Source of the DNA: Flavobacteriales bacterium
GTDB lineage: Bacteria > Bacteroidota > Bacteroidia > Flavobacteriales_F > PHOS-HE28
DNA length: 64,000 nucleotides
NCBI GenBank assembly: GCA_039933875.1
Contig: JBDTNF010000188.1
Location: 53 to 64,052, forward strand
Direction: 5' to 3'
Shown here: one piece after another, positions 1 to 16,078 of the stretch
How the letters are laid out: every line of letters starts with the position of its first letter
How positions within the stretch are numbered: position 1 is the stretch's first letter
Notes under the pieces: model-generated
What the model saw: the letters and a program-made list of their open reading frames with translations, nothing else
What the model was told of the DNA's origin: nothing
Database searches by the model: none
Position numbers and translations under genes: made by a program

Positions 1-1259
1 AGACCATAACGGTCTTCGAGCATCAGAAGCTGATGCTGAGCGCGAACGGGCTAATGCCCGCGCACGTGCAGCGCCTGCTGGCATGGAACGAGACCAACGG
101 CAACCAGTACTTCAGCTTCGGCCTCAAGAGCATCACCTTCACCCAATATGTGGGCGTGATCCAGGTCGGCGACCGCGTGATCGAGGTGCTTCCTAAGGCG
201 GACCGCACCGAGCCGGATACAGAAGAGACAAGGGACAAGTGGCAGCGTTCGTTGCTGACGATGTTGCGCGCGGTGCATGACCTGCCGCTCACGAGCACCA
301 CCGAAAGCCATTTGCAGAAGCGCCGCAGCACGGTGCTTGACTTCTTCTTCGGCCTCTACGTTCGCGATATCGAAGGCCTTGTGCGCCGTGGTTTGGTAAA
401 ACGCTATCGACGCACCAAGGCCAATAGCACCGCGCTGAAGGGTCGGCTTGATTTCCCCCGGCACATCCAGCAGAACCTCATTCACCAGGAGCGCTTCTTC
501 GTGGAGCATCAGGTTTATGATACGGACCACCTGCTCCATGCCCTGCTCAAGAAGGCTTTGTCCATTGTGAAGGGCCTAGCGCAAGACCCGGTCATAAGCA
601 GCCAAGCCACTGGCATCGAATGGGCCTTCGAGCAAGTCGCCGATCGCCGCATGGACCCGGTCACTCTCGACCGTATCATACTCGACCGCAAGACGGAACC
701 GTATGCGCGGGCCATGCAACTGGCCAAGATGATCGTGCAGAACTATGCACCGGACATCAAGGGCGGCCATATGCCCTTGATCGGATTGATGTTCGACATG
801 AATGTGCTCTTCGAGCAGTTCGTGTACCGTGTGTTGCGTAAAGCGCAGCCTGCGTTCTCAGAGCAACAACTCACGGTCCGGGGTCAAACACGGCAGAAGT
901 TCTGGCGCAACAAGACTATTCGCCCGGACATCGTGCTGGAGTACACACAAGGTGGCGCGTCGCAGAAAGTCATCGTTGACACGAAATGGAAAGTGCCCGC
1001 CAACGGGAAACCGAACGACGCGGACTTGAAGCAGATGTTCGTGTACAACGTGCAGTTCGATGCGGCGAAGAGCGTGTTACTGTATCCGCACGTTCCAAGC
1101 TCCACGCGCTATGATGGCAGCTATGTGAACAGCGTGCGATTACCCCGGTGGGAGCACTTGTGTTGCATGGAGTACGCAGACTTGTTCAGCGATAACGGAA
1201 CGATCCGCCCGAACGCAGGGAATGTGATCCTATCGGATCTCGTTCTCTCAGGGATGTAA
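1..1259 (+). CDS. McrC-like PD-(D/E)xK restriction endonuclease subunit (5-methylcytosine restriction system component), 5'-partial at window edge
   Basis: The reading frame is open back to base 3, so the gene begins outside the window. The C-terminal region carries a PD-(D/E)xK-type signature (RPDIVLEY...QKVIVDTKWK, compare DAKYK of McrC). The expected McrB GTPase partner would lie upstream, outside the window. Confidence 0.5.
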   Translation, partial: TITVFEHQKLMLSANGLMPAHVQRLLAWNETNGNQYFSFGLKSITFTQYVGVIQVGDRVIEVLPKADRTEPDTEETRDKWQRSLLTMLRAVHDLPLTSTTESHLQKRRSTVLDFFFGLYVRDIEGLVRRGLVKRYRRTKANSTALKGRLDFPRHIQQNLIHQERFFVEHQVYDTDHLLHALLKKALSIVKGLAQDPVISSQATGIEWAFEQVADRRMDPVTLDRIILDRKTEPYARAMQLAKMIVQNYAPDIKGGHMPLIGLMFDMNVLFEQFVYRVLRKAQPAFSEQQLTVRGQTRQKFWRNKTIRPDIVLEYTQGGASQKVIVDTKWKVPANGKPNDADLKQMFVYNVQFDAAKSVLLYPHVPSSTRYDGSYVNSVRLPRWEHLCCMEYADLFSDNGTIRPNAGNVILSDLVLSGM

Positions 1260-1264
1260 TCGTG

Positions 1265-2218
1265 CTATGCCGATGATTGATTTACCACCGCCACGTCCAT
1301 TGCCATGAACTCCATCAACCGGTCGGTAATGTACTTGGCCCTTTCCATCCCGCCCGACCTGAAGTTCTCGTAAGCCGGCCCCTTTTCGGGAACTTGATAG
1401 AGCTGGCTTCGCAGGTTCCAAATTGGACCAGCGATCGGAACCAACTGGCTTTTCACATGGAGAATGAGCTCCTTGCGGCGTATTATGCGCGGTGTTTCCG
1501 GAAGTTCTTTGGTGTCCAGGTCGCTAAGGATCAACACCGCGCGCTCAACGATCACATACAGTTCGATCAACGTTACCGCGGTCCATCCAATGATGTGCAG
1601 TTTAGTGTTCTCATCTTCGGTATTGAGGATGGTATTCAACCATCCCTTCTCTTGGCTCCAACTTGACGTCATGTACTCGGTTACGGCTATGCACCCAGTG
1701 TTTTGCGTCCATGGTTTTCTGGTATAAGTACGAATGTCATCCTTCAAGTCTAGTATCGCGCGGGCCAGCAGGTCCATCTCCATGGTCTGTTGACTGATTC
1801 TGGCTTGATCCTTCAAAGGCTGGAGTTGCGCCGCTTGCGATTCCGCCATGGCCTGTTGGGCCTTAACGGTGTTGATCAGCTCATCACGTGTCAACTTGTA
1901 TTCATTGATCTGCACGGCAAGCGTGATTATCAACAGAACCGCCGCGATCATTGCGAGTAAGGTGCCTATAGTTCCACTGACGTACTGCCCAATGTTACCG
2001 GAAGCCTGATGCAAGGCATCGCCACTACCACTGTGCATATACCACCAAAGGGCAACGCAAAGACCAGTGCCGATCAAAAGCACCCAAGGCATTGCGCGGA
2101 AGATGCGAAGGGACCATTTCGTGAGCGTGAAACGCATTTGGTCAAAGGAGCCGTGGTCGCTATCATTCTCATACGACATGGTGTGGTGGTTTGGTAACGG
2201 CCACCTCACCATCGGCAT
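1265..2218 (-). CDS. hypothetical membrane protein (2 predicted TM helices, coiled-coil region, cytoplasmic C-terminal domain); likely start at 2179 (MSYEND...)
   Basis: A 317-codon ORF convergent with the McrC-like gene, with hydrophobic segments WVLLIGTGLCVALWWY and LLAMIAAVLLIITLAV. Local composition is visibly more AT-rich than the flanks. Confidence 0.5.
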   Translation of the reverse strand: MPMVRWPLPNHHTMSYENDSDHGSFDQMRFTLTKWSLRIFRAMPWVLLIGTGLCVALWWYMHSGSGDALHQASGNIGQYVSGTIGTLLAMIAAVLLIITLAVQINEYKLTRDELINTVKAQQAMAESQAAQLQPLKDQARISQQTMEMDLLARAILDLKDDIRTYTRKPWTQNTGCIAVTEYMTSSWSQEKGWLNTILNTEDENTKLHIIGWTAVTLIELYVIVERAVLILSDLDTKELPETPRIIRRKELILHVKSQLVPIAGPIWNLRSQLYQVPEKGPAYENFRSGGMERAKYITDRLMEFMAMDVAVVNQSSA

Positions 2219-2312
2219 GCCAGATCCGACGATCGCAGGAACGACGGGGCTTCCTCCTGGTCACAACGCGGCTCCTGTATTCAAACCCTCCGTCGGGACC
2301 TCGCCCACGGAG

Positions 2313-2725
2313 TCAAGTGGTCTCTTCCAGCCCGCTCACCACCTTCAGGAGCCGGTCACCGCTTTCCCAGATCGCCTCGCGCACCTTGCGCGGCGCGATG
2401 ATGCAGCCGCGCGAAGCGGTGCCTGGCTTGGAGATCGAATCGCCGTGGATCAGGAAGCCATCACGGCCTTTAGGTCGGTGCCTGGCTTGGGTTGCAGACG
2501 CAGGACGTATGGTCCGTGCTCCGCTGTCTTGTAGGGCGGTCCGGTGATGGTCCACATGCCGTGCGTCACAGGGCCCACGCCCTTTTCATACTCGTACTTC
2601 GGGTTGTTCTTCCCGCGATCATAGCCGCTGTAAAGCGCCGCACGCACACGCTTGCCCGTCGGGTCGAAGAGGACGCCTGATATCTGTTCGTAGGTCCACA
2701 TGTTCGTGTCGGTCCGTTCTCTCAA
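2313..2725 (-). pseudogene. Tlde1/DUF2778-like (YkuD L,D-transpeptidase-fold) protein, disrupted by a frameshift near 2455-2480
   Basis: Two overlapping minus-strand ORFs (2450-2725 and 2313-2555) lie in different frames. The first carries YSGYDRGKNNPKYEYEKGVGPVTHGMWTI and the second GFLIHGDSISKPGTASRGCIIAP, which is the HG...S.GC catalytic motif of L,D-transpeptidases. Together they reconstruct one ~130-aa domain. The annotated TTG start is at 2725 and an internal ATG is at 2701. Confidence 0.45.
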
Positions 2726-2765
2726 CGAAGCAGCGGATCACTCGTGATCCTTCCAAATTCCCAAT

Positions 2766-2783
2766 GGGGGTATTTTACCCGGG
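2766..2783 (-). promoter_or_regulatory. 18-bp motif GGGGGTATTTTACCCGGG (plus-strand reading), copy 1, upstream of the Tlde1-like gene
   Basis: An exact 18/18 match to the sequence at 8316-8333. It contains the small hairpin GGGTA-TTT-TACCC. On the minus strand it lies 41-65 nt upstream of the candidate start codons. Confidence 0.4.
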
Positions 2784-2819
2784 TACACCTTCTGCGGCTC
2801 CCACCAGGAACGGGACCTA

Positions 2820-3920
2820 TCATGGTTCGACCGTGAACTGCCCTGCGGCAGGCATGTTCGGCGGGCGGTAGTGGGGGTCGGCGGCCATGCGGTCCAGCAC
2901 GCTCTGGTGTACCACAGGCATGGGGGGTACGGTGCGCCGTCGGCCATGATAGATACGCCAGGTGCTCTCCCACTTCATCGTTCCATCCACCATGTGTACC
3001 AGTTGCCGCCGCCGCTTGGGGATGAATTCCAGGATCCACCAGATGCCATGCAACGAGCGGTGGAGCATGGCTTTCGGATCGGGCGCGGCGATGTGGCCCA
3101 TTACCGAGGCGGTCAACAGGCCGTTGCGTTTCGCGGCATCCACCAGCAACCCGTTGGGGCGATCGGCGGCTTCGCGCACCATCCACGCGAGCGCGATCTT
3201 GCTGAGCCCGCTGTCCCTTTCGGCGTAGCCACCACCCACATCGCAGTGTACCCCGGGGAACCAGACCTCCTTCACATCCTGCCCGGGTGCGCGCCCGGTC
3301 CATGCGTTCTGCCGGTAGAAGCACCGCCGCTCATCGAGGCTGATGGCGTGCCGCACCATATCCACTGAAGGATTGTCGCTGGTGTACGGGTAGCTGTCGT
3401 CCTTGAACGGGCTGGCGTTCCTCAGGCTCTTGACCGTATCCCACACGCCGATGAAATGGATGCGGACATCGCGCGAGTAGAGTTCCTTGAACCCCTGCGC
3501 GTGCGCGAAGTCCTTGCGTTCCAGAACGCGGAAGGCATAGGGCACCAGATTCTCAGACCCCTTGTGGAGCAAGCCACAGAAGTGTACCAGGGCGGCCAGG
3601 GCGCGAACGGTGAACGCCCCGCGGCTGAATCCGAAGAGGTGGATGCGATCGCCCGCTTCGTAGTTATCCATCAAGTATCGGTAGGCTTCGAAGAGGTTGT
3701 CCTCGAAACCAAGGCCGAAAGCCAGGCCCAGCAGTTCGGTCCACCGTCGCTTCCAGCGACTCCAAGTGCCCGGCACACCGAAGGTGCCCACCCCGGGGTC
3801 GTAGTAGACCAACTGGTGCCCGCTCCGTTCCAACATGGCGAAGAGTTTCACCACGTTGGTGTTCTCATCACCATAGCTGTTGTTCGTGCCGTCGCAGCAG
3901 ATCACCAGGTTGCGTGCCAT
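2820..3920 (-). CDS. DUF2235 family alpha/beta-hydrolase (Tle1-like phospholipase-effector-type domain)
   Basis: The N-terminal signature RNLVICCDGTNNSYGDENTNVVKLF matches the DUF2235/Tle1 hallmark (CDGT.N....TNV.KL). The GFSRGA nucleophile elbow is present, and HCDVGGGY lies downstream. Confidence 0.65.
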   Translation of the reverse strand: MARNLVICCDGTNNSYGDENTNVVKLFAMLERSGHQLVYYDPGVGTFGVPGTWSRWKRRWTELLGLAFGLGFEDNLFEAYRYLMDNYEAGDRIHLFGFSRGAFTVRALAALVHFCGLLHKGSENLVPYAFRVLERKDFAHAQGFKELYSRDVRIHFIGVWDTVKSLRNASPFKDDSYPYTSDNPSVDMVRHAISLDERRCFYRQNAWTGRAPGQDVKEVWFPGVHCDVGGGYAERDSGLSKIALAWMVREAADRPNGLLVDAAKRNGLLTASVMGHIAAPDPKAMLHRSLHGIWWILEFIPKRRRQLVHMVDGTMKWESTWRIYHGRRRTVPPMPVVHQSVLDRMAADPHYRPPNMPAAGQFTVEP

Positions 3921-3923
3921 CGG

Positions 3924-4040
3924 CTATCCTTTTATGGTCAGTTCCACGCAAGGCAGCTTCTTGTCCGCCTTGAACACAACCCCGGCCTTTTTCCACGACG
4001 CCTTGGCAGGGCTCTTTTCCCGGTCAAGCTGGTATTTCAT
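3924..4040 (-). CDS. possible 38-aa Lys-rich small ORF (MKYQLDREKSPAKASWKKAGVVFKADKKLPCVELTIKG) between the MBL-fold and DUF2235 genes
   Basis: The ORF fills the 148-bp intergenic gap on the coding strand, and its TAG stop lies 3 nt before the DUF2235 ATG. There is no homology evidence. Confidence 0.15.
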   Translation of the reverse strand: MKYQLDREKSPAKASWKKAGVVFKADKKLPCVELTIKG

Positions 4041-4068
4041 CAAGGAGGCCCCGATGTTCCGCAAGTGA

Positions 4069-5532
4069 TCAGAGGAGGATGTCGACATGGAGTTCGGTTT
4101 CGGTCACCTTGTTGCCGAAGGCCGCCCGATCGGCGGCGGAGAGTGCCGATAGCTCGCTCGCGGTGGGCAGCTGCCGGGTGCTGTCCGAGAAGATCAAGCG
4201 GCCCTTGGTGCGTTCCTTCAACCGCCCCATCAGCGAAGGCCAGGGCATTGTGCGCGCATAGCCCATGGATGCGGCCTGCGACACTTCGAGCGGCACGATC
4301 GCGATCAGGTCGCGATGGATCATTTGTTCCAGGCCCTGGTCCTTCAGTGTTCCGTTGTGGCTGCAGTGGTGGCTCACCTTATAGAGCACGGTATCCTTCA
4401 GCAGGTCGGCGGTGGTCACCTTCTTCGTGCCCACCTTGAAATCGGCGTCGTGCCAGCTCAGGCAATTGCCCACCTGTGCGTCGCCGGGGAAGAGCAGAAC
4501 GCGACCATCGGGGAGTTGGAAGGCGAGCGCGAGGCTGGTGTTGTTGGTGTCGCGCACAAGGGCCATGGCCAATGCCTCGAAGGAGGCGAAGCTGTCGCTG
4601 CTGAGTGTTCGCCAGGGTGCGTCCACACCGTTGTCCACGGAGGGGAAGTACTTCGCGAACGCTCCTTCGTAGGTGCTGCGCTCCTGGCTCGATGGCCGCG
4701 CGGTGGCGGCATGCGAGCGCAGTTCCGCAGGCGATGGCGCACCGCCAAGGCTCACCCCAACGGTGGGTGCGAACGGGCCACTGAAGCCCTGTTCGAAGTC
4801 GGTCCCGGCATCGGTGAAGCCGAAGGCCCGGCGCGTTTCCGGGTACACCTCGGGCGTGCGTGTGTTCGGATCGCTGGCGGCTATCTTCTTCACATCCCGG
4901 GGCGGCCCGAGCACAAAGACCTTCACCCCCGGCAGCCGGGTATCGGTATGCACCGTGTGGGGTAGGAAACAGTGCTGCTTCTTCACCCGTTTCTTCAGGT
5001 CCGCGAAGATGTCCTCCAACTTGGCGGCACCAGCGGTGGCATTGAGCTGCAGTCCGTGGAAACCGAGGAGCCCTTCGATGGCCTCGCTGCGCACCGCATT
5101 GAGGCGAAGCCCTGGACTGGCGCCCATGCGCACGGCCTCCGCCTCCACCTTCTTTTTCTTCTTGCCCAACTCGGTGCGAACGGCATCGGCCACGGTGTCC
5201 CCCTTCTTTTCGGTCCAGGCCATCCAGAGCTCGCCGATGGTGATGCCGGCCCACACATCCTTGGCCTGTTCGAAACCGGAAAGATGGTCCCAATGCTCGT
5301 GCGTGGCCACGAGCACATCCACATGGTCGTTGGTCTCCAAGGCGATGTCGCGCACCACTTCCTGCATGCGCGGGCGCGGGTTCCTGGCACCCATGCACAC
5401 CCCGCAATCGATCACGATGTGGAAAGGGTTTCCGGCCACGCCCGGAAGGGTGAGCAGGAAGCAATCGCCGAGGCCTTGTCGGTACATGCGTACACGGGCC
5501 GCTGGGTTGGTCGGTGTTCTCTTCTTAGCCAT
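4069..5532 (-). CDS. metallo-beta-lactamase-fold hydrolase (487 aa), third gene of the caspase operon
   Basis: An HxHxDH zinc motif (VATHEHWDHLSG) is present, with a DCG upstream and an HHCSHN histidine cluster downstream. The start at 5532 (MAKKRTP...) overlaps the upstream gene's stop in the sequence ATGGCTAA. Confidence 0.7.
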   Translation of the reverse strand: MAKKRTPTNPAARVRMYRQGLGDCFLLTLPGVAGNPFHIVIDCGVCMGARNPRPRMQEVVRDIALETNDHVDVLVATHEHWDHLSGFEQAKDVWAGITIGELWMAWTEKKGDTVADAVRTELGKKKKKVEAEAVRMGASPGLRLNAVRSEAIEGLLGFHGLQLNATAGAAKLEDIFADLKKRVKKQHCFLPHTVHTDTRLPGVKVFVLGPPRDVKKIAASDPNTRTPEVYPETRRAFGFTDAGTDFEQGFSGPFAPTVGVSLGGAPSPAELRSHAATARPSSQERSTYEGAFAKYFPSVDNGVDAPWRTLSSDSFASFEALAMALVRDTNNTSLALAFQLPDGRVLLFPGDAQVGNCLSWHDADFKVGTKKVTTADLLKDTVLYKVSHHCSHNGTLKDQGLEQMIHRDLIAIVPLEVSQAASMGYARTMPWPSLMGRLKERTKGRLIFSDSTRQLPTASELSALSAADRAAFGNKVTETELHVDILL

Positions 5533-7402
5533 GGTCCGCGTTGTTCCAGTTGTCGCCGTGCAGAAAAGCGAAGGGTTCGTTCCTCGCTGTGGCATCGTTG
5601 CCGAAGAATCGGGCACGCACGCCGACCGGTAGTTCGTTCATCACGTATTCTTCCGTTGCGGTGCGCCGCTCTTCGTCGGTGATGGGACAACGGATGCAGT
5701 AGCGCAGGGTAAGTGTATCGAGGTCCACGATGAGGGTGGAGCCTCCACGGAACTGGTAGCTGCTGCCGTCGGCCGTGCGGATGGTGCGGCGTTGTGTGAG
5801 CGTGAGCAACGCATGGTTCAAGAGCGTGCCATCGGGCCGCGACCGGAAGGCGGTACGCACCTGGTGCACCTCGAACACGGGCAGGCCGTCCTTGTCCAGG
5901 GCGATGCCGAGCTTTTGCGCATCCGGTCCGAGATACAATCCGCAGAACCGGCTGAACTCATCGAGCCGGGTGATGTTCTTGTCGCGCACCGCATCCTTGA
6001 TGAACTCGTGTAGGGCCCCTTGAGCGTCCTTCGTCTTTTGCTGGATCCGATCACGCACACCTTCATAGCGCAACCAGTCCGCCTTGTCGCGCAACATCTC
6101 GAAGAGCCAGATGAGCCCCCCTGCGCGATCCTGCATGCTGGGCCAGGCCAGTTCCTCCTCCGAAAGGATCGTGACACCTTGGGCGAATATGCCGCGTTTG
6201 CGGAAAGCGTCGATCAACGCGATACGGTAGCCGTACAGGTCTTCGGGCACCATGTCGCGGTCGGCGGTGATCAAGGCCCGCAGGTAATCGCCGAACGTGA
6301 TCCCCGCGGGTGGGCAGTAATCCAGCGCTCGGATGCACATGCCGAGGAATTGTTGGGCGGTCTTCGCTGCTTCATCCGCCAGGGCGTCCACGAGTAGGGT
6401 GGGCAGATCCCCATCGGGCAATACGCCGGTGCCACCGGTGGCCATGCGCACATGGCGCTTGGAGCGCTGCCGGTAAATGGTGATGAACGCTTCGAACACG
6501 GCCGCCACCAAAATGGCACCACGGTCATGGGGCTCGCGCGTGTTCGCCATGGCGGCGGGATCCACAGGCGCGCCGATGGCCGATCGCAACGAATGGTGGT
6601 TGCCGATGGCGCGTCCGAACTCCTGTGCCAGTTCCACCAGGAGATTGGGTTTGTTCAGGTCGCCGCGTGTGTGGGCCACCTCACTGCGCAGCACTTCGGG
6701 GAACGTGAAGTGCTGGAACAATGCCACCAGGTCGGCGAACGCCTCATGGAACGCGAGCGAATCGGGACTTACTGGTTCGATGTAGCGTCGGTGCATACCA
6801 TCCAACAACGCATGGGTGGTCTCGTGGGCGACGATATCGTGCGATAGACAAGTGAACACCGTACTCCGCGGTGCGTGTATGCCATCATCCTCGTTCGCTT
6901 CGAAGTAGCCGAACAGGAGCGCTTTCTGCACAGGACTGTAAAAGGCGTTCGTACCGCGCAGGGCATGTGGATAGACACGCAGGCGGGGCACATCGAAGTA
7001 ACGGTTGGGGTTCTCGCCGGGGGCGGGGTTTTGCTTCGGTTCCTTTCCCTGCCCCCAAAGCGCTTTCCGCCCAAGGGCCATCTCGAAATTCTTGATGGTC
7101 GTCATCACCACCGCATAGACCATCTGCTGATGGGACTGGGGCGAACTTTCAGAAGGATCAAGCCCATCCTGTGCGAGCACGAAGGGGTGTTCCAGGTCCA
7201 CTGGCTCATACAGACGTTCGCTTGCCGGGTCATGGTCCACCACTTCGATGTACTCTCCGACCGGTCCGGGTTTCAACGACTCCCACGGTACGGTGAAGGT
7301 GGCTTCGTTGATGCCGGCCGTTTCCAGCACGGTACTAAGGCTGGGGTCCATCGCATAGCCACGTAACCGGCGATAAGCGGGTGGTCTTGTTACCTGGGTC
7401 AT
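5525..7402 (-). CDS. gluzincin-type zinc metalloprotease-like protein (625 aa), thermolysin-like HExxH...E site
   Basis: HETTHALLDG is followed 19 residues later by AFHEAFADL, the same spacing as thermolysin HELTH...NEAISD. There is no signal peptide. The gene is translationally coupled to the MBL gene. Confidence 0.6.
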   Translation of the reverse strand: MTQVTRPPAYRRLRGYAMDPSLSTVLETAGINEATFTVPWESLKPGPVGEYIEVVDHDPASERLYEPVDLEHPFVLAQDGLDPSESSPQSHQQMVYAVVMTTIKNFEMALGRKALWGQGKEPKQNPAPGENPNRYFDVPRLRVYPHALRGTNAFYSPVQKALLFGYFEANEDDGIHAPRSTVFTCLSHDIVAHETTHALLDGMHRRYIEPVSPDSLAFHEAFADLVALFQHFTFPEVLRSEVAHTRGDLNKPNLLVELAQEFGRAIGNHHSLRSAIGAPVDPAAMANTREPHDRGAILVAAVFEAFITIYRQRSKRHVRMATGGTGVLPDGDLPTLLVDALADEAAKTAQQFLGMCIRALDYCPPAGITFGDYLRALITADRDMVPEDLYGYRIALIDAFRKRGIFAQGVTILSEEELAWPSMQDRAGGLIWLFEMLRDKADWLRYEGVRDRIQQKTKDAQGALHEFIKDAVRDKNITRLDEFSRFCGLYLGPDAQKLGIALDKDGLPVFEVHQVRTAFRSRPDGTLLNHALLTLTQRRTIRTADGSSYQFRGGSTLIVDLDTLTLRYCIRCPITDEERRTATEEYVMNELPVGVRARFFGNDATARNEPFAFLHGDNWNNADHG

Positions 7403-7429
7403 GGGGTCAGGGATGAGCTGCCGTGTTGT

Positions 7430-8290
7430 TCAAACGGTGAAAGGCTGCTGTGCTTCGTAGGTGGCTGACGGCGCGCCCACCACGTAATAGTTGGGTGTTT
7501 GATCGGCGGGCATGCGAGAGACGATCGCGTCACGGAAGCTCCGGTAACCCTTCTTGAACTTTCCATTGTTCCACACTTCCTTCAGCGTTTCAGTGAACAA
7601 CCCGTTGCGGTCACCGTCCGACGATTCCTGGTTGTCCATACATCCTGAAATGAGCAGGCCGCTGGCCTTCACCTTCACCTTCTCACTACCGCGCGTTCGA
7701 TCCTGGATGCCATCGTACAGCTTCTTGTGCGCGTCGTAAACGCGCTTACCGATCGCGGGGGGCATGAAGCGCTTCCGTCTGCCCACGGGACGCATCCGCA
7801 GCACTGTGCCGCTGTGGCATGAATCGGAGAGTACGAGAATGCGGACACCCGGGGCGAACCTGGCGTATTGCTTGTACATCTCATCATCCACCAATTCGCG
7901 GTCGTACAGGCACCAGGTCTCGTCCTTGCGATCGCGTTCATCCGAGTTCTTATCCGGTACCTGCCCGCCGTGGCCGCTGTAGGTGAGGAAGAAAATGTCG
8001 CCCGCGCGCAACTGTTTGGCCGCAGCGTTCATCACCGCGATGACCTTCTTGCTCGTGGCCGCCTTGGTCAGCAGCTTGGTGCTGCTGCCGAAGCCTCGCT
8101 TCTTCGCAAGGGCCGCCATATCGTTCGCGTCGAATTCGCATGCGGTGAGGTCGCCGCTCCATCCTTCGTACTGGATCGGGTCGACGCTGTTGAGTCCTAT
8201 GTGCAGAGAGATCCCTTTGGCCATGACCTGTTGGTGTTCGTTGATGTGGTTGTTCGCTCCACTCAAATGTGCGGGTGCCTCAACGCTCAT
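7430..8290 (-). CDS. metacaspase/orthocaspase-like peptidase C14 (286 aa), first gene of the operon
   Basis: The catalytic His motif [10 protein letters not shown] and the Cys motif [11 protein letters not shown] together match the metacaspase H/C dyad signature (YSGHG / DSCHSG). There is no signal peptide. Confidence 0.75.
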
Positions 8291-8315
8291 GCAATACCCG
8301 ATCCCCGGTATGTGC

Positions 8316-8333
8316 GGGGGTATTTTACCCGGG
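8316..8333 (-). promoter_or_regulatory. 18-bp motif GGGGGTATTTTACCCGGG, copy 2, upstream of the caspase operon
   Basis: Identical to 2766-2783, lying 26-43 nt upstream of the caspase ATG at 8290 on the minus strand. Confidence 0.4.
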
Positions 8334-8663
8334 GCGCCGTGTCCGGATTTTCTTATCAGTATGGACAGGAGCCTGGTGTCGCCGCGGGTGGTCCCGGCAT
8401 AGGCCGGGTGTCATCGTCCCATGGCCATAGGTCTCGAGCCATCGGCCCTGCCAGCCATCGGCTTCGAACGCCCGCAGGATGGCGACCTCGGCGAACTGCG
8501 GGCGGCCATCAACAGTGAGCAGGTCCTTGCCGCCGAAACTGTGTACTGGTTCGGCAGCCCATTTGGTATAAGTGGGTGAGCAGAGTGGGACGTGCACTTC
8601 GCCGCCGCTGCAACTCACTGAGTGATGTGCTATGGGACGGAGACTCCCGGGAAGATGCGTCAT
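8325..8663 (-). CDS. hypothetical 112-aa ORF in the spacer between the SBBP-repeat gene and the caspase operon
   Basis: This is an ORF only, with no recognisable motif. Its 3' end overlaps the conserved 18-bp motif. It may be spurious or a gene remnant. Confidence 0.2.
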
Positions 8664-8690
8664 CCGGTTCTGTTCACGGGAAGGGCGAAC

Positions 8691-10244
8691 TCAACCCTTG
8701 CGTCGTTTGCGTCGCACCATGAGGAGGGTGGTGGCGAGCAGAAGCAGTGCCCCACCACCCCAAAGCACCAGGCCGCGTGGCAGGAAAGGTGTGCGATCGA
8801 ACCCGTGTATATCCGTTCGCGTTGCGCCGGTTCCCGCATAGCGTACGAGGAACATATCATATAACCCATGGTTCGCAATGTCCAGCGAAGCTGCGGTGGG
8901 ATCAAGATCCATTCGCGCGCTGTTGAACTTGCCACAGGCGAAAAGTCCATCGCGCCCGGTGATCGCCAGGTGCAGTCCGAAATCCCGCTCCATGCCTTCA
9001 CTACCCCAAGAGACCCAGCGCAACGCGCCAGCCGGACCGTAGGAAGCCAGATAGTAATCCTGTATACCAAAGCTGGTGTGCTCAGCGGTCAGCGCGGGAT
9101 CGGGGTCGAAGTCGCAGACCCCGTCATAGGTGCCGGTGACATAGATATTCCCTTCGTCGTCCACGCCAAGATCCTCGGGTAGGTTACTAGCATCAATACC
9201 ACCTGGTGCGTAAGCACTGTGCAATGCGAACGCCCATTGAAGCATACCATCATCGTCATATTGAGCAAGAAAGGCCTTTGAGGGTTCGCCTGATACACAA
9301 CTCAGAACTTGTGTCGCAGGGCCGGGATCAATGTCGATGCTGCGATTGACCAAGCCGGCCAGGTACAGATGATCCCGCTTCCATGCGATCGTTGTGAACA
9401 CGTTGTTCGCACCAGCGAATTGTGCCAGCCGACGCAAGGAGCCATCCGGCCGATAGGTGGCAATGAAATTGCTCGGTTCCGTGCCTGTCAAACGGAGCCC
9501 TAATGGTTCCGGATCGAACTGGTTCTTTTCATCGGCAAGGCCGGCAACGAAGAGGTCACCGTCAGGATCCGTGGCGATATCCCAGAAGGACAGCGGTGTA
9601 TTGCCCTTCATCGCACGTCCCCAGAGTATATCACCACCAGCATTGAATTTGTAGAGGGTATGTGCCGTAGTGGTCGGAGTGGTCGTTCTCGCGCACGCAT
9701 AAATGAGAGGGCCTGCCGCCAGCGCCAATGAGGTTCCATAGCTGTTACCGTCATAGTGATAGTGGTGTTCCCAAACGAACGCTCCGAGACCGGAATACTT
9801 TGCGACCAATACGTCATGGTCCGTGCCCCCGGCTTCGATGTAGTGCGTCGCCGTGGAGGGATCCATATCGACGCGGCCCGTGAAAGCCCCGGTCACGTAT
9901 AGGTTACCAGCACCGTCCATGGCGATATCACGCCCCTCCGCGCCAGGGATGGCGAATCCCCACTGATAAGCGCCCTCGTTATTGTATTTCGACACCACCA
10001 TGCTCGATGAGCCGCCCACGCCCAGTTCCCCTCCTATTGCGTCAGGGGTCATATCCACCACGCCATTGATAATGCCGGTGATGTAGGCAGCTCCACTGGC
10101 ATCAGCTACAACGGCCATCCCGAAATCCCCGCCAACGCCCCCTAAGGCTTTGGCCCACCGGGGTGCTTGCGCGGAAGCGTTCATTGCACATGCGGAAAGC
10201 GCCAATTGCAATGGAAGTCGGACCTGCCATCCCGAAGATCTCAT
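8691..10244 (-). CDS. secreted SBBP beta-propeller-repeat protein with C-terminal TM anchor plus basic tail (GlyGly-CTERM/exosortase-like sorting signal)
   Basis: A signal peptide MRSSGWQVRLPLQLALSACAMNASAQA is present (start at 10244). There are repeated G.G.D.G..IA.D..GN.YVTG units. The C-terminus is GGGALLLLATTLLMVRRKRRKG. Confidence 0.6.
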   Translation of the reverse strand: MRSSGWQVRLPLQLALSACAMNASAQAPRWAKALGGVGGDFGMAVVADASGAAYITGIINGVVDMTPDAIGGELGVGGSSSMVVSKYNNEGAYQWGFAIPGAEGRDIAMDGAGNLYVTGAFTGRVDMDPSTATHYIEAGGTDHDVLVAKYSGLGAFVWEHHYHYDGNSYGTSLALAAGPLIYACARTTTPTTTAHTLYKFNAGGDILWGRAMKGNTPLSFWDIATDPDGDLFVAGLADEKNQFDPEPLGLRLTGTEPSNFIATYRPDGSLRRLAQFAGANNVFTTIAWKRDHLYLAGLVNRSIDIDPGPATQVLSCVSGEPSKAFLAQYDDDGMLQWAFALHSAYAPGGIDASNLPEDLGVDDEGNIYVTGTYDGVCDFDPDPALTAEHTSFGIQDYYLASYGPAGALRWVSWGSEGMERDFGLHLAITGRDGLFACGKFNSARMDLDPTAASLDIANHGLYDMFLVRYAGTGATRTDIHGFDRTPFLPRGLVLWGGGALLLLATTLLMVRRKRRKG

Positions 10245-10503
10245 GTGCTTGATCCGTTCAATTCGACCGCAGGCAGGTAGCTGCCACACTGGATGAAATG
10301 GACCTCGGTGCCGGGAGTAGGAAAGGGATAGCCGTTCATGGCAAGGTTGTGCAGGTCGGTATGTCTTGGATAAAGGTCATACTCGCGCATCACTCTTGCA
10401 AGGATGTCCGAGGGTCTCACTTCCGCCGTATTGCAAGGGATGCGTGCTGCATTCCCGAACTTCGGACCCACACTTGCACTACGCCGGTCAAAATCCTCAT
10501 CCC

Positions 10504-10908
10504 ATGCTTCGCACAACCCTTCTCCTCCTTACCCTCATCACCCTCACCACCTTGCGCGCCCAGGATGCGCTGAGCACCCTCACCGGCGCCGGCCCCAGCA
10601 AGCAATGGAGCGTGATCGGCAACGCCACCGCACCCAAGTGCAGCCCCGGCGATGCCACGTACACCTTCAGCGCGAAACAGGTGGCGGTCGGCACCTGCGC
10701 GGGTGGTGCATGGAAGAGCAGCAACGAGGCCCTCACCACTTGGAGCGCCGGTGGCAAAAGCGGCATCGCCTTCGGCGGATCGAAATACGAAGTGAAAAGC
10801 CTGCCCGCTACCGCACCGGCCTGCAAGGGCAATGCGAACTGCGTGCGCCTGGTCACCATGCCCGATGGCAAGACCGACGCCACGCGCACCATCTACCTCA
10901 CGCACTGA
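10504..10908 (+). CDS. small secreted hypothetical protein (134 aa)
   Basis: A signal peptide MLRTTLLLLTLITLTTLRAQ is present. The stop codon overlaps the next gene's start (TGATG). Confidence 0.5.
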   Translation: MLRTTLLLLTLITLTTLRAQDALSTLTGAGPSKQWSVIGNATAPKCSPGDATYTFSAKQVAVGTCAGGAWKSSNEALTTWSAGGKSGIAFGGSKYEVKSLPATAPACKGNANCVRLVTMPDGKTDATRTIYLTH

Positions 10909-11384
10909 TGGAAGAAAAGTCCCCGAGGAAAGGCGCCGACTATTCCAAGGCGGTGGCTCCGCTGCTCACGGTGCTCGGCATCTCGGTGGGTGCGTGGCAG
11001 TTCACCAGCCAGATGAGCCACGAGAGCAAGATGGAGTTCAGCCGCAGCATGTACAACAAGAAGCTGCAGGCCTACGAGCAGGTTGGTCGCGCGGTGGGCG
11101 ACCTGCTGGTGGTGCCCCACGACGAGCAGTTGTGGATAAGCGCGGGCGATACGCTGGCCTTCGACAGTTGCCTGGAACGTTTCCGCACCTGTTACTGGGG
11201 CGTGCTGCCCCTGGTGGAGGACAGCACCGTGGAAACGGCGATGATCCAGTTCAAGGATATGGCGCGGTTCTACCGCCGCGGCGAGAACGATTACCACGAC
11301 CTGGCCCGCGAAGGCATGGCGCTGATGAACGCCTGCAACCGCTCGCTGGAGCAGCACTGGAGCAAGCCGAAGAAGGAGGAGTGA
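10908..11384 (+). CDS. hypothetical single-TM protein (158 aa), translationally coupled to 10504-10908
   Basis: The start MEEKSPRK... overlaps the upstream stop. One hydrophobic helix VAPLLTVLGISVGAWQF is predicted. Confidence 0.5.
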   Translation: MEEKSPRKGADYSKAVAPLLTVLGISVGAWQFTSQMSHESKMEFSRSMYNKKLQAYEQVGRAVGDLLVVPHDEQLWISAGDTLAFDSCLERFRTCYWGVLPLVEDSTVETAMIQFKDMARFYRRGENDYHDLAREGMALMNACNRSLEQHWSKPKKEE

Positions 11385-11571
11385 GCTTCTCGCGGATCGT
11401 TCGCGTCAGTGGTGCGTACCAGGTCGAACAATGTTCTTGATGGTGCTACGCAATTTGAATTCCATCGGAGCGCCTACCTCTGGATATCCGCCTGTCGGAT
11501 CACGCTCCCCTGTATGGAAAGCCGACCTACCTACGAAGAGCAAGAGCTTTGATCCGACGAGCTTCTCTTTG

Positions 11572-11601
11572 GTACTTTCTCTTGCGATCAAGAGAAAGTA
11601 C
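11572..11601. repeat. perfect 13-bp inverted repeat (GTACTTTCTCTTG-cgat-CAAGAGAAAGTAC) flanked by GATCCG(A/C)CGAG direct repeats, inside a 550-bp non-coding spacer
   Basis: Read directly from the sequence. It lies within the 11385-11933 convergent intergenic region, which has no convincing ORF. Confidence 0.6.
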
Positions 11602-11933
11602 GATCCGCCGAGGATGCAGTGTAGCGCAGACCAAGTCCGCCTTGGCGCGCACCCACCTAGCCCCTCGCTCTCTACTGACTTGGCGCATTCACCTGGCCCT
11701 CCGCATTCTGCCGCCCTTGGCCAACTCACCAAGTGCAAGCCGCACGGTAGTCGCCGTACTTTCTTTTGTCGCCCAACCCTTCGATGTCGCTCAGGGCAAG
11801 TATCAAAGAAAAAGGAGGACCAGATCATCACCGCTGATCACGAACGTGAGCGTTCAACGGCATTGGATCCGCTCCCTGTTCGAGAGGTGATCCGTCGCGC
11901 GTGCGCAAACTCCCGGCGCCTTCTGTTCCCCGC

Positions 11934-12497
11934 TCAGGTGGGCTGCCTGTCGTGCACCCCCTCGCGCACTTCCTCCAGCAACTTCGCGTTGAAGGCGGGA
12001 AGGTCCTTCGGGCTCCGGCTCGTCACCAGGCCCTGGTCCACCACCACTTCCTGGTCGCTCCAGATGGCACCGGCGTTCTTCAGGTCGGTCTTGATGCTTC
12101 CATAGCTGGTGAGTTTCCGCCCACGCACCACATCGGCTTCGGCAAGCATCCAGGGTCCGTGGCAGATGGCGGCCACCGGTTTCTTCTGCGTGAAGAAGGC
12201 GCGCACGAAGGCCACGGCCTCGCGGCTTTGCCGCAGCTGGTCGGGATTGATCACGCCGCCGGGGAGCACCAGCGCGTCGTAATCGTCGGCCGAGACATTG
12301 GTGACCATGTGGTCCACCGCTGTGGTGCCGTGCCAATCACCGTTCTTCCAACCCTTGATGGTACCACTGGCGAGGGAGATCACGCTCGCGATGGCTCCCG
12401 CTTCTTCCAGCGCCGTGCGCGGGCTGTTGAGTTCGCTGTCCTCGTATCCGTTGGTGGCGAGAATGGCCACTCGCCTGCCTTTCAGACTGTCGTTCAT
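11934..12497 (-). CDS. pfpI: DJ-1/PfpI family protein (intracellular protease/amidase, YhbO-like)
   Basis: The nucleophile elbow AAICHGPW is present, with a DJ-1/PfpI-like fold pattern. The protein is 187 aa. Confidence 0.8.
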   Translation of the reverse strand: MNDSLKGRRVAILATNGYEDSELNSPRTALEEAGAIASVISLASGTIKGWKNGDWHGTTAVDHMVTNVSADDYDALVLPGGVINPDQLRQSREAVAFVRAFFTQKKPVAAICHGPWMLAEADVVRGRKLTSYGSIKTDLKNAGAIWSDQEVVVDQGLVTSRSPKDLPAFNAKLLEEVREGVHDRQPT

Positions 12498-12517
12498 GGG
12501 ATGATGGGTTTTGCTGA

Positions 12518-13093
12518 TCAGTGCTTCCGATGGTTGCTCATCCGTGCACGCCGGCCTTTGAGGGCGGCCACGCGTTCGGTCTGCGCGTTGTGCTGGAAGG
12601 ATGTATGGCCGCGCATGGGGACCTTGGTGTCGGGCGTGGGGTCGAAGGTGGCATCGGGCTGCACGTCGAACTGGGCCACGGCGGTGAGCTCCTCTACCGG
12701 GGCACCGGTGGCCTCGGGCTGTTGTTGTTCAGTGACCTTGGCCTTTGGCTCTTCGTTGGCGCGTGCGCGCACCGGTACGCTCCGGGGCTTTTCTGCCTTG
12801 GGCTTCTCCATTTGGCGGGCGGGCATGGCGGCCTTCTTCATCACCGCGGCTTTCGGCGCCGGTTTCATAGTGGTCGACTTCTTCGCGACCGGTTTTTTCT
12901 GCGCGGTCTTCGCGGCACTCGCCTTGGCCACTTTCGTGCTCGTCGTTTTGGCCGATGCACCACGCTCAGCGACCTTCTTCTTCACTGCGGCTTTCGGTGC
13001 CGGCTTCCGGGCTGTCGACTTCTTCGCAGCAGGTTTCTTCTTTGCGGACTTCATGGCTTTGTGTTTCACGAAGCGCGGCGAAGTGCGTGCCAT
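12518..13093 (-). CDS. histone H1-like Lys/Ala-rich DNA-binding protein (191 aa) with internal tandem duplication
   Basis: MARTSPRFVKHKAMKSAKKKPAAKKSTARKPAPKAAVKKK... contains KKP.AKKST..KPAPKAAV.KK twice. The long 499-aa ORF upstream of this Met is Arg-rich GC-artefact-like sequence. Confidence 0.55.
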   Translation of the reverse strand: MARTSPRFVKHKAMKSAKKKPAAKKSTARKPAPKAAVKKKVAERGASAKTTSTKVAKASAAKTAQKKPVAKKSTTMKPAPKAAVMKKAAMPARQMEKPKAEKPRSVPVRARANEEPKAKVTEQQQPEATGAPVEELTAVAQFDVQPDATFDPTPDTKVPMRGHTSFQHNAQTERVAALKGRRARMSNHRKH

Positions 13094-13123
13094 GGCGTGC
13101 TCCTTGCCACGTTCCCGCCAAAC

Positions 13124-13348
13124 ATGCACGCCATGAACAAACCACTTCCGCTCATTCTGCTGATCGCAGGACTCGCGATCATCGGCCTCGGCTTGATGAA
13201 GAAGGACGACGGCCAGGCTGAGATAGACCTCGGCAAGACGGAGATCACACTGGGCAAAAGCGACAGCGCCTTCAACCCGTATTTCATTGTGGGCGGCGTC
13301 GCTGCGGCCGCCGGTCTGGCGCTGATACTGGTGAAGAACAAAGGCTGA
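13124..13348 (+). CDS. small two-TM membrane protein (about 74 aa), divergent from the histone-like gene
   Basis: MHAMNKPLPLILLIAGLAIIGLGL...FIVGGVAAAAGLALILVKNKG has two clear hydrophobic helices. Confidence 0.4.
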   Translation: MHAMNKPLPLILLIAGLAIIGLGLMKKDDGQAEIDLGKTEITLGKSDSAFNPYFIVGGVAAAAGLALILVKNKG

Positions 13349-13401
13349 TCGCCGTGTAGTCCGTGCACACGGTGGGTAGATCCTTCCACGCCGCCCCGCG
13401 A

Positions 13402-14250
13402 TCAGAAATGGATCGCTAGGCCAACCCCGGTGCGCACGCCGCCGAGGGTCACACGGTACTCGGGGCGCACCAAGGCGTCCTCTTCCAGGGTATGGGCGGC
13501 GAAATGCGGCTCGGCCAGTGGCAGCGTGAGGTCCACATCGGCGAACAACGATACGTAGCGCGTGAAGTACAGTTCGGGGCGGAGCTCCACCGCGAGGCTC
13601 GCCCCCCAGGCGGTGGCACGCTGCACCACTTGGCGTGCATCCCAATTGGAGATGGCGATCGCTGGACCATAGGGCTCGTAGCCGGTGGCGCTCATCAAGA
13701 TGTTGTCGCTCACAGTGTACTGTTGGTTGGCGACAAGGCCGAGTTCGGCGGCCACGTTGTGCACACGCAGACCCCAGGCAGCGTGCAAGCCGAAGCCGAC
13801 ATGGTGCCGACCGGCATAGGGCCTGATGGCGATCCGATGCAGCACCGACAGCGTGTTCATGGTATGCGCGAGGGTGAGCAGGTCGGCTTCGTACACGTTG
13901 GTGGTGATGGTGCCGAAGAACCAGCTGGGCGTGCTGGTGGTGGAGATGAGTTCGTTGGTCGCGTTCCACCCATGCCGCGTGGCGGCGCGGTCGTAGGCGA
14001 GCACCAGCGTGCCCCATTTACCGGGGCGGTAACCACATTCCACCCGCCAGGCCGAACCCGTGGTACCGGATCGCATGTCCTGTGGTGTCGGATCCATCAG
14101 GTTGTGCGCGTCGTAGTTGGTCATATAGGTCCCAGCCACATCCCAGCGGGTGGGCCTCGGATCCTGTGCTTGTGCCGCAGGGAAACCGCGGAGCACGATC
14201 GCGGCGGCCATCAGCCAGCGCGTGCATCGTTCGGGGGAAAGGGGTTCCAT
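13402..14250 (-). CDS. outer-membrane beta-barrel protein, possible PorP/SprF-type T9SS partner of the upstream cargo gene
   Basis: The protein has a signal-like N-terminus, alternating beta-strand-like composition and a C-terminal aromatic residue (…GLAIHF). It lies immediately downstream of a T9SS CTD cargo gene. Alternative starts are at 14283 and 14211. Confidence 0.4.
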   Translation of the reverse strand: MEPLSPERCTRWLMAAAIVLRGFPAAQAQDPRPTRWDVAGTYMTNYDAHNLMDPTPQDMRSGTTGSAWRVECGYRPGKWGTLVLAYDRAATRHGWNATNELISTTSTPSWFFGTITTNVYEADLLTLAHTMNTLSVLHRIAIRPYAGRHHVGFGLHAAWGLRVHNVAAELGLVANQQYTVSDNILMSATGYEPYGPAIAISNWDARQVVQRATAWGASLAVELRPELYFTRYVSLFADVDLTLPLAEPHFAAHTLEEDALVRPEYRVTLGGVRTGVGLAIHF

Positions 14251-14261
14251 GGCATCGGGCG

Positions 14262-15242
14262 TTAGTTCACGGTGAAGGCGCAACCGGTGGTGCGGCCATC
14301 GGTGGCCGATGAAGCGCGCAGCAGATAAGTGCCGGGTAGCAGGGTGTGTACATCGAGCATCACGGGTTCGGTGGTCGCCACCATATTCGTGTGCAACACC
14401 AACCGGCCGGTGGCATCGAACACATCCACGTTCACCGTGCCGGTGGTGCCAGGCAAACGCAGGTTAAGGTTGGCGTGCGCCGGCACGGGCCATAGCTCGG
14501 GCTTCATCCCGGCCACATGCTCGTTCATGCCGATGGTCGCATCGTCCAGGGCGCGTGTGAAGTACGTGGTGTCACTATTCTCGAAGGGGGTGGTGTACCA
14601 GTTGGCACTGAGCCGCGCCACGACACCGCGCACGTTCGGTGCGTAGAACTCCAGGTTCTCCTGGTAGTTCACCACCGCATAGCCGCCGGCGGTGTCCAGC
14701 AGCATGGTCGTCCTATGCAGCCCCACCACCTCCATCTCCTGGCCTCCGGGCAGGCGCACCGTTCCCCAGGCATCAGCGGTCCAGCGCACGGTATCCTGGT
14801 ACAATATGCCCGACCCATCCATATAGCTATAGGGGTCCTCCCAAGTGGTGCCCGCCGTCCAGGGGAAGGGCATCACCACCAAGGGGTCCACCATCTCAAA
14901 GTGGTCGTCGGGGGAGACATACCAACCGACCACCGTCCATGCGGTGGGGCTCTCGTTGTAGAACTCGGTGACCCAATCACCGGCCAGGGCCACATTGGCT
15001 TGTGGGTTGAGGCTGGCACCCGGCATGGTGTCGGGCAGCGCATAGGGCCACACGGTCGAAGAAGGGAACGTAAGACCGCTCAAGTCCCAATACTGCGCGG
15101 GGCCCGCTGCGAACGGGATGCCCGACGAGGTGAGGAGGTAGTGGCGCACATCCCCCGGCTGCGGCTGTATGCTGCTCGTGATGATGGGTTGTGCCGTACT
15201 GGCAGTGGGGAGAAGGAGGAGGAAGGCGTAGAGCTTGTTCAT
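14262..15242 (-). CDS. T9SS C-terminal sorting-domain secreted protein
   Basis: A signal peptide MNKLYAFLLLLPTASTAQ is present. The C-terminal Por-type tail reads ...VNVDVFDATGRLVLHTNMV...LLPGTYLLRASSATDGRTTGCAFTVN. Confidence 0.65.
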   Translation of the reverse strand: MNKLYAFLLLLPTASTAQPIITSSIQPQPGDVRHYLLTSSGIPFAAGPAQYWDLSGLTFPSSTVWPYALPDTMPGASLNPQANVALAGDWVTEFYNESPTAWTVVGWYVSPDDHFEMVDPLVVMPFPWTAGTTWEDPYSYMDGSGILYQDTVRWTADAWGTVRLPGGQEMEVVGLHRTTMLLDTAGGYAVVNYQENLEFYAPNVRGVVARLSANWYTTPFENSDTTYFTRALDDATIGMNEHVAGMKPELWPVPAHANLNLRLPGTTGTVNVDVFDATGRLVLHTNMVATTEPVMLDVHTLLPGTYLLRASSATDGRTTGCAFTVN

Positions 15243-15616
15243 GGTGTGGCGATCGCTTTTCATGATCGTGGTACCAAGCAACACCCGCAGTGCGGCGATG
15301 TACTTGCACCGATCGCGCCACCTCGCGCTGCGTTCCGCATGGATCACTGATCCGCCATGCCGCGAAGGCGATCCGTCGCGTTCCGTCCCACGCAGAGGCC
15401 GGGATCAACGCATATGCCCGGTGGCTGCGAACATCGGTGGCGCGCGCCGCATGCGGCGCGGAAAAAGGCCGGCCTGTTCGCTCTGCGGGCCACGGATCCC
15501 TGCGCCATGCCCACTGCCCCGCCAGGGCTACGCGGTGTGGTTCAACTGAAGGCTCGCTGGTGGGATGCACCGTGCCGAATGGTTAGCTTCACCATCGAAC
15601 CCTAACCCACCTTGTC

Positions 15617-16078
15617 ATGAGAACGATACAACGCACACTGACCATCCTCTGCCTTGCCGCAGGCCTTGTGCCCGACGCCGTCGCACAAAGCGACTCCCCC
15701 TTCAAAGAGGGCACCGTGTACACCGTGGCCATGATCCGCACGGAGGCCAATTCGCAGGATGATTACTTGAAGTTGCTGAGCACCTACTACGTGCCGCTGA
15801 TGACCAAGGCCAAAGAGCAAGGGCTGATCAAGGGCTTCACGCTGCTCAGCGGCGCCTTCGCCAACCAGGAGGACTTCGACGTGATGATGCTGGTGGAGTA
15901 CGAGAGCATGGCCATGATGGATCCCGATGTGGCGCGCGAGGCGAAGTGGAAAGCGATCCGTGATGGCATGGACACCAGCATCGGTGGCAAGGAGAAGACC
16001 GATGCCATGCAGACACAGTTCGGAGGCATGCGCACGTACGTGGGCAACAAGCTCATGCGCAAGCTGGAGTTGAAGTAA
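15617..16078 (+). CDS. secreted hypothetical protein (153 aa)
   Basis: A signal peptide MRTIQRTLTILCLAAGLVPDAVAQ is present. A strong intrinsic terminator follows. Confidence 0.55.
   Translation: MRTIQRTLTILCLAAGLVPDAVAQSDSPFKEGTVYTVAMIRTEANSQDDYLKLLSTYYVPLMTKAKEQGLIKGFTLLSGAFANQEDFDVMMLVEYESMAMMDPDVAREAKWKAIRDGMDTSIGGKEKTDAMQTQFGGMRTYVGNKLMRKLELK

Follow-up and report, generated by a model that had tools for sequence, protein, structure and literature searches.

In the window analyzed here, a stretch of 64,000 nt from a Flavobacteriales metagenome-assembled genome, two overlapping genes on the minus strand encode a zinc metalloprotease with a thermolysin-type fold (M4L) and a protein with a metallo-β-lactamase fold (MBL), and we found these two genes side by side in more than 10 phyla. 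We give about an even chance to the reading that the M4L-MBL pair is a protease-gated pro-nuclease cassette, one that uses a metalloprotease and combines with variable accessory hydrolases. Among described systems, the pair most resembles the protease-activated pro-nuclease phage-defense modules of Tuck et al. (Science 2025, PMC12799240); the gated pro-nuclease kind is already known, and a metalloprotease form of the protease-pro-nuclease pair would be new. An earlier note on this DNA had proposed a three-gene system, with a caspase-like protease encoded immediately upstream of M4L as the third member, and its author knew of no described system of this type. The latter point is dated by the work of Tuck et al., which reported MBL pro-nucleases with a paired trypsin-like or caspase protease. 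The two core genes are the following:

5525..7402, minus strand: M4L, a 625-aa HExxH zinc metalloprotease with a thermolysin/fungalysin fold; core gene 1
4069..5532, minus strand: MBL, 487 aa counted from the ATG, with a ComEC-like MBL fold; core gene 2

The coordinates, strand and close spacing that the earlier note had given for the three open reading frames (ORFs) were all confirmed. The gap between the caspase stop and the M4L start is 27 nt, and the M4L stop and the MBL start overlap by 8 nt (ATGGCTAA, read C-ATG-GCT-AA) within CATGGCTAA; with a GTG start, the MBL ORF extends to 5616.

Gene neighborhoods were compared across 84 loci, 80 from species-representative genomes and 4 from two look-ups of homolog-encoding contigs. 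In 83 of these 84 loci, which cover >10 phyla (Chloroflexota and Armatimonadota included), the gene immediately after M4L, in the same orientation, encodes an MBL homolog, and at the lone exception the contig ended 56 nt past M4L. In the reverse test, M4L or a fusion of M4L to an S8 subtilase was directly upstream of the MBL homolog in 3/3 cases. Furthermore, the pairwise identities of M4L and MBL correlated (r = 0.72). This obligate adjacency is far beyond chance, and the cross-genome comparison that the earlier note had called for thus bore out the co-occurrence of M4L and MBL. The same comparison did not bear out adjacency of the caspase, which was near the pair in 3 of the 80 genome loci. 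Because M4L-MBL synteny is general while the caspase is rare near the pair, the conserved unit is the pair and not the triad, and the idea of a conserved three-gene system had to be dropped.

The M4L family is very large, with >8000 homolog clusters, and its distribution is patchy, with members in at least 533 of ~185,000 species representatives. Of 94 plasmid matches, 52 were on conjugative plasmids. Searches of viral collections returned one partial IMG/VR match and two weak or partial GenBank phage matches, and from this near-absence we conclude that the cassette is not typically phage-borne.

The AlphaFold2 model of M4L (pLDDT 76, pTM 0.85) displayed the thermolysin fold, and the HExxH motif, the downstream Glu ligand and the two-lobed fold of clan MA(E) were all present, in agreement with the gluzincin assignment made in the earlier note from the HETTH and HEAFAD motifs. 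The zinc and catalytic residues are located at HETTH 193-197, E220 and D224, and H193, E194, H197, E220 and D224 were 100% conserved among 78 M4L sequences. The number of residues between HETTH and HEAFAD, previously counted as 19, is 21. From H197 to E220 the spacing is 23 residues, compared to 20 between the corresponding ligands of thermolysin. The zinc site (HExxH + E) and the Asp after it are features that M4L has in common with the secreted enzymes thermolysin (M4) and fungalysin (M36); unlike them, it is predicted to be cytoplasmic, without a signal peptide or recognized prepro region. It also has two additional parts, a conserved one of ~85 aa at the N-terminus and a variable one of ~215 aa at the C-terminus (residues 411-625). 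M4L itself matched no family in Pfam (M4 models included), NCBIfam, PADLOC, or PHROGs, and it lacked the secreted prepro architecture, with no signal-like N-terminus, while one homolog (P0067) cleared Pfam PF01447 with 31 bits against a cut-off of 22.4. When the PDB was searched by sequence with the profiles of M4L and MBL, only noise or matches to the N-terminal MBL motif came back.

Across the 78 M4L sequences, column identity was 70-74% in the core and the N-terminal 85 residues and 37-55% in the C-terminal region, and such variability beside a conserved core suggests a sensor-like feature. Searching 1.8 billion representatives with the C-terminal 211 aa of M4L brought up apparent members or fragments of the same family. 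As the matches always lay at the C-terminal end of the protein, they gave no clue to the origin of the domain. The long M4L homologs (900-1060 aa) were considered as sensor-domain fusions, and this was rejected, since no sensor-type Pfam domain was present and P0025 (1030 aa), aligned in detail, proved to be a tandem M4L duplication. Its first copy has a dead site, HLVSH, in which the catalytic Glu is lost, together with a C-terminal region, and its second copy has an active-type HEMTH and ends after the catalytic core, without the C-terminal region. This pseudo-dimer-like arrangement suggests that single-copy M4L may work as a dimer.

Broken MBL genes were observed at two loci. At the locus of P0029, a 921-aa homolog of the long class (L171 7001-13187), MBL was present as fragments only, ~3 kb downstream and past an inserted HTH_38 gene, with CHAT, IS66 transposase, and E2-CBASS/ThiF genes in the vicinity. 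In R. leguminosarum pRL12 (L170 5956-9051), an MBL gene split into two ORFs comes after the gene of a more distant M4L relative, which is annotated "serine protease" and is 32% identical over residues 16-408; a DUF1837 gene and an S1/P1 nuclease are close by.

A precedent for an intracellular HExxH metalloprotease acting as a phage-triggered suicide switch is Lit (peptidase U49), the product of an abortive-infection gene on prophage e14 of E. coli. This zinc metalloprotease of the cytoplasm cleaves EF-Tu and, unlike M4L, is encoded by a single gene with no paired nuclease.

For the third protein, the MBL fold named in the earlier note was supported; the THEHWDH motif is present, and the N-terminal Lactamase_B matches were weak. 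Its best structural match was of the ComEC type, and the ComEC-like MBL nuclease fold came with intact metal-binding motifs (HEHWDH 78-83, D351, and H388/H389/H392), the metal-binding residues being invariant in the family. MBL is by its fold a ComEC-like phosphodiesterase and a probable DNase. ComEC is a membrane channel protein whose C-terminal MBL domain comprises 266 aa in the solved structure, whereas the window MBL is soluble and free-standing and is longer by ~220 residues, most of which lie in two insertions at ~aa 108-185 (helical) and ~aa 214-330, on either side of the half of the fold that holds the active site. In the AlphaFold2 model of MBL (pLDDT 79), residues 221-300 of the second insertion had a pLDDT of 33-55, and within this otherwise variable insertion a PF dipeptide (253-254) is kept in at least 97% of 78 sequences.

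Profile matches and alignments link MBL to the known gated nucleases. MBL gave weak matches to LmuA-MBL, RTasMBL, and Avs1a in PADLOC and to 6A-MBL and Avs1a in NCBIfam, and in hhalign comparisons its family profile matched CanC (E 8e-7) and HamM (E 3e-5). A multiple alignment of MBL, KaeCanC, PflHamM, and an Avs1a-like protein was collinear, and the blocks GD..L, THxxxDH, VxVLGP, NxSS..GDA, and KVxHHxSxxN are common to all four. Both insertions fell at the same alignment positions as the gating loops of HamM, CanC, and Avs1a.

The nuclease-protease pairs described by Tuck et al. belong to Hachiman, AVAST type 1, Lamassu, and DRT UG9; two disordered insertions block the active site of the nuclease, and a co-evolving trypsin-like protease cuts these loops and thereby unleashes the DNase (PMC12799240). 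The same study also found caspase-nuclease "canu" loci (KaeCanABC), proposed a co-evolving protease and active-site insertions as discovery criteria, and listed trypsin, caspase/CHAT, and subtilase as protease partners, with no mention of a metalloprotease. The window resembles these pairs in that a ComEC-like MBL nuclease and a protease are encoded side by side and inherited together, in that the two insertions occupy matching positions of the fold, and in the core motifs GD..L, TH...DH, VLGP, NxSS..GDA, and KVxHHxS. The class of the protease differs, being a thermolysin-fold metalloprotease in the window and a trypsin-like serine protease in the known pairs. Moreover, the window protease has a gene of its own upstream of the nuclease, whereas the proteases of the known pairs are parts of HamA, Avs, or LmuA fusions encoded downstream of the nuclease. 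M4L-MBL also has no conserved helicase, STAND, or SMC sensor nearby.

By analogy with HamM/HamA, Avs1a/Avs1b, and CanC/CanA, the cell would produce MBL as a pro-nuclease that its gating loops keep inactive. M4L would sense a trigger, e.g., phage infection, via its fast-evolving C-terminal region and/or a change in its oligomeric state and would then cut the insertion loop(s) of MBL, and the freed DNase would degrade DNA, leaving the cell arrested or killed. What we observed are the folds, the intact catalytic residues, the synteny, the placement of the insertions, the set of accessory genes, and the defense-island settings; proteolytic gating, activity on DNA, the trigger, and a defense phenotype are inferred. 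For the caspase and a DUF2235 lipase encoded downstream, three roles are conceivable: additional effectors that M4L arms, upstream regulators, or genes that merely reside in the same island. Of the protease-cascade idea in the earlier note, a protease acting on another protein is retained as the most plausible type of mechanism, and the obligate triad is not.

The defense-like setting put forward in the earlier note was corroborated by plasmid-borne copies of the pair, which adjoin SIR2, Hachiman-like, and TcmP genes. On the conjugative plasmid pCMU01 of Methylorubrum extorquens, the pair sits beside a SIR2 gene, an IS5 element, a second SIR2 gene, an AAA ATPase, and an exonuclease. About 115 nt past a patatin-M4L-MBL array on A. 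tumefaciens pAt1 (L169 4815-13162), and in the same orientation, there are genes for a HamA-like DUF1837 protein and a HamB-like DEAD/DEAH helicase, and TcmP and DUF3800 genes lie upstream of the array; this arrangement may be a Hachiman variant that uses the M4L-MBL pair, or two adjoining systems. When PADLOC was run on 71 immediate neighbors in the genome loci, mad3, mad8, AriA, SIR2, TIR, and PDC-S56 were found, together with two genuine MBLs of the Avs1a/LmuA type. At two loci (alignments A3 and A4), the neighbor of the pair strongly matched PADLOC PDC-M48B and LmuA-MBL (E 1e-35 to 1e-38), with weaker Avs1a matches (E 1e-11 to 1e-14), and hence is a second defense-type MBL nuclease beside the pair. 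In the literature searched on anti-phage systems, metalloproteases, MBL, and patatin, no description of the M4L-MBL pair was found, and Kaur et al. 2020 (PMC7159879) make no mention of a comparable MBL, thermolysin, or patatin system.

Several observations weigh against a gated pro-nuclease in phage defense. The similarity of MBL to the gated nucleases was significant in its N-terminal 90 residues only, and the PADLOC matches covered just the first ~75-90 residues. MBL is ~100 aa longer than the nucleases of the known pairs and carries HxHxDH in place of the HxDxDH of HamM and CanC. It scored 26 bits against a cut-off of 420 for Avs1a and 35 against 220 for 6A-MBL, and because these scores are far under the cut-offs, MBL falls outside the curated families; by sequence, it is a distant relative of the Avs1a/6A-MBL equivalogs and not a member. 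The pair is absent from PADLOC 2.0, and in the fetched loci no NTPase, helicase, or dedicated sensor was conserved beside it. An infection sensor coupled to the protease, such as HamAB, STAND, Lamassu, or CanB, was likewise not found, the DUF1837 and helicase genes being directly downstream in one locus only. The genes around the pair are for the most part housekeeping genes unrelated to it, the branching of the M4L tree reflects taxonomy in part, and ~50% identity across phyla is unusually high conservation for an immune gene. Finally, the phosphorylcholine esterase Pce was nearly as close to MBL in structure as ComEC, and a non-DNA substrate of MBL is therefore possible.

The last of these points also fit a physiological role, in which the pair would, for example, include a Pce- or NAPE-PLD-like phosphodiesterase that acts on the head groups of lipids or polymers and cooperates with lipases to turn over membranes, or would serve stress or developmental autolysis. 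High conservation, a partly taxonomic tree, mostly housekeeping neighbors, and the similarity to Pce all agree with it, as does the phospholipase-like nature of the commonest accessories (patatin in 18 of the 80 genome loci; DUF2235). We nevertheless regard it as unlikely, given the patchy distribution and the copies on conjugative plasmids inside defense islands. The best structural match and the common motifs point, moreover, to ComEC-type and validated defense nucleases, and a cytoplasmic thermolysin-type endoprotease paired 1:1 with a hydrolase would have no obvious metabolic logic.

Around the pair, the window contains three further ORFs of interest:

7430..8290, minus strand: C14 caspase ORF, a standalone orthocaspase of 264-286 aa
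2820..3920, minus strand: DUF2235/Tle1-like alpha/beta-hydrolase, 366 aa, with a GFSRG motif, 148 nt downstream of MBL
8325..8663, minus strand: a 112-aa ORF upstream of the caspase

The caspase call was sound. The protein contains a C14 domain (PF00656, 76.5 bits against a cut-off of 21.4, E 3e-21) with the His (YSGHG)/Cys (DSCHSG) dyad, and the match spans residues 40-269; its real start is likelier MAKGISL at ~8224 than 8290. The three genome loci with a caspase near the pair differed in arrangement. In L005, the nearest relative, the order is caspase-M4L-MBL-DUF2235, with the caspase in the same position. In the Rhodoferax locus L011, a caspase of 52% identity adjoins the pair in divergent orientation, and in the Armatimonadota locus L075 the caspase domain is part of a 1014-aa amidase-caspase protein downstream of the pair. 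Two genes of L005 appeared broken: the caspase ORF does not end where expected but extends into the M4L gene (L005 6103-7338), and the DUF2235 gene is in pieces (L005 10509-11615), reflecting either long-read frameshift errors or decaying accessory genes.

It could be hypothesized from the operon-like spacing in the window (the 27-nt gap followed by the 8-nt overlap) that caspase, M4L, and MBL form an obligate three-component cascade, for example with the caspase activating M4L and M4L activating MBL, or with caspase and M4L each cutting one gating loop, which would make the locus canu-like with an extra metalloprotease. Caspase-activated MBL nucleases do exist in canu (PMC12799240), the four-gene order recurs in L005, with a caspase also beside the pair in L011 and L075, and the slot upstream of M4L repeatedly holds a hydrolase, be it a patatin or an S8 domain fused to M4L. 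As in canu, the MBL nuclease gene of the window is downstream of a protease gene, and its array also includes a C14 caspase. However, besides the rarity of the caspase at pair loci, none of the 80 closest caspase homologs (from metagenomes, 51-64% identity) had an M4L, MBL, patatin, or DUF2235 gene within 6 kb. Their usual neighbor, ~8 nt downstream (L090 5159-6982 and 23 others among L085-L164), encodes a fusion of ~607 aa in which an alpha/beta-hydrolase (GHSLGS) is joined to a second C14 caspase domain; caspase and fusion make up a two-caspase module of their own. The caspases of the window and L005 are 49% identical, and their M4L proteins 82%. The caspase was also tried as a CanA orthologue and rejected, with no similarity to KaeCanA in BLASTP (E 2.8); and because it has 264-286 aa, with C14 over residues 40-269, there is no space for the Ig-like domain of CanA. 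No MALT1-like CanA paracaspase with a C-terminal Ig-like fold was thus found upstream of the nuclease, and no CanB-like partner was identified. Also in contrast to canu, M4L separates the caspase from the nuclease in the window, and the caspase is not conserved with the window MBL family. Given the synteny counts, we consider an obligate caspase-M4L-MBL cascade unlikely, although such a cascade may exist as a lineage-specific elaboration. The caspase is a lineage-specific accessory, or a neighbor, in a variable slot upstream of M4L.

Other hydrolases recur around the pair. A patatin-like phospholipase was present in the 18 loci mentioned above, mostly immediately upstream and in the same operon, and these loci are scattered over the M4L tree. 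On alphaproteobacterial plasmids and at one metagenomic locus, M4L carries an S8 subtilase at its N-terminus as a fusion. The sole annotation of these fusions (L166 5720-8818, L167 5270-8830, and L175 1435-4986; 1032-1186 aa) is "S8 family serine peptidase", and such S8-M4L fusions may be what Tuck et al. noted as "subtilase-associated" nucleases. The DUF2235 protein of the window matched PF09994 over the full profile length (269 bits, E 6e-80). A DUF2235 gene follows the pair in the window, L005, and the Thermoanaerobaculia locus L047, and is upstream of it in pCMU01 and, in divergent orientation, in Hymenobacter pHA. The closest homolog of the window DUF2235 protein (64%) is encoded in L177/L178, where its gene lies 3 nt past the MBL gene of a less closely related M4L-MBL pair. 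DUF2235 hence recurs beside M4L-MBL in at least four lineages, and we favor it over the caspase as a true partner of the pair. This downstream lipase, overlooked as an accessory in the earlier note, is better supported than the caspase, and the window is the caspase-M4L-MBL-DUF2235 version of a modular family.

Extending the gated pro-nuclease reading, we tentatively consider that M4L-MBL may be a widespread and self-contained immune or programmed-death module, a version that we hold to be rather doubtful. M4L itself would be the sensor, through its C-terminal domain and dimerization, and also the hub, which would always arm the gated DNase and, in parallel, any accessory plugged in (patatin or DUF2235 lipase, caspase, subtilase).

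The 112-aa ORF matched no family in Pfam, NCBIfam, or PHROGs. A homolog with 55% identity is encoded directly downstream of the DUF2235 gene in L177/L178 (L177 3964-4209), and homologs of 163-185 aa were found in accessory regions of Hymenobacter plasmids (L181 7052-7543 and L182 6986-7543), near DUF262, PD-(D/E)XK-helicase, and Fic/VbhA genes. The ORF is probably a truncated copy of a small conserved protein, and it is uncertain whether it belongs to the M4L-MBL system.

Most of the neighbor assignments in the earlier note held, namely those of McrC (Pfam E 1e-62), the DUF2235/Tle1-like protein, and a membrane protein of lower GC (0.52 vs ~0.60). The Tlde1-like fragment, which adjoins the DUF2235 gene, gave a sub-threshold Pfam match only (E 0.0075). 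Together with the match of DUF2235 to the Tle1 catalytic domain (E 6e-80), this fragment raises the question of an antibacterial toxin island, in which DUF2235/Tle1, a Tlde1 remnant, the protease, and the nuclease would be exported by a type VI or type IX secretion system (T6SS or T9SS); nucleases, lipases, and proteases are typical effector activities. We find this very hard to sustain. The absence of signal peptides claimed earlier was upheld by inspection by eye, with no hydrophobic signal-like segment at the N-termini of caspase, M4L, and MBL, consistent with a cytoplasmic location, and no T9SS C-terminal domains were seen on the three proteins. No VgrG, Hcp, PAAR, or immunity (Tli) gene was found among the ORFs of window positions 1-16000, the Tlde1 match is under threshold, and the pair occurs in >10 phyla mostly without a lipase or other effector-like neighbor.

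A scan for sigma-70 promoters and terminators was uninformative. Elsewhere in the window, at ~12518-13400 on the minus strand, a Lys/Ala-rich histone-H1-like repeat (KKPAAKKSTARKPAPKAAVKKK...) lies inside a long ORF, at a place where the AT skew is locally strong (-0.36).

If M4L-MBL is indeed a protease-gated pro-nuclease cassette, zinc metalloproteases would be a fourth protease class, so far overlooked, for the activation of pro-nucleases, and the pair would represent a minimal two-gene format without a separate NTPase sensor. It would also give a function to a very large unannotated family of soil and freshwater bacteria, spread over >10 phyla and over rhizobial and Hymenobacter plasmids. 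The swappable accessory hydrolases (patatin, DUF2235, S8, and caspase) constitute a natural experiment on how death effectors combine, and cultured carriers, among them M. extorquens CM4 with pCMU01, A. tumefaciens with pAt1, Mucilaginibacter, Pedobacter, Spirosoma, and Chitinophaga, make the hypothesis testable.

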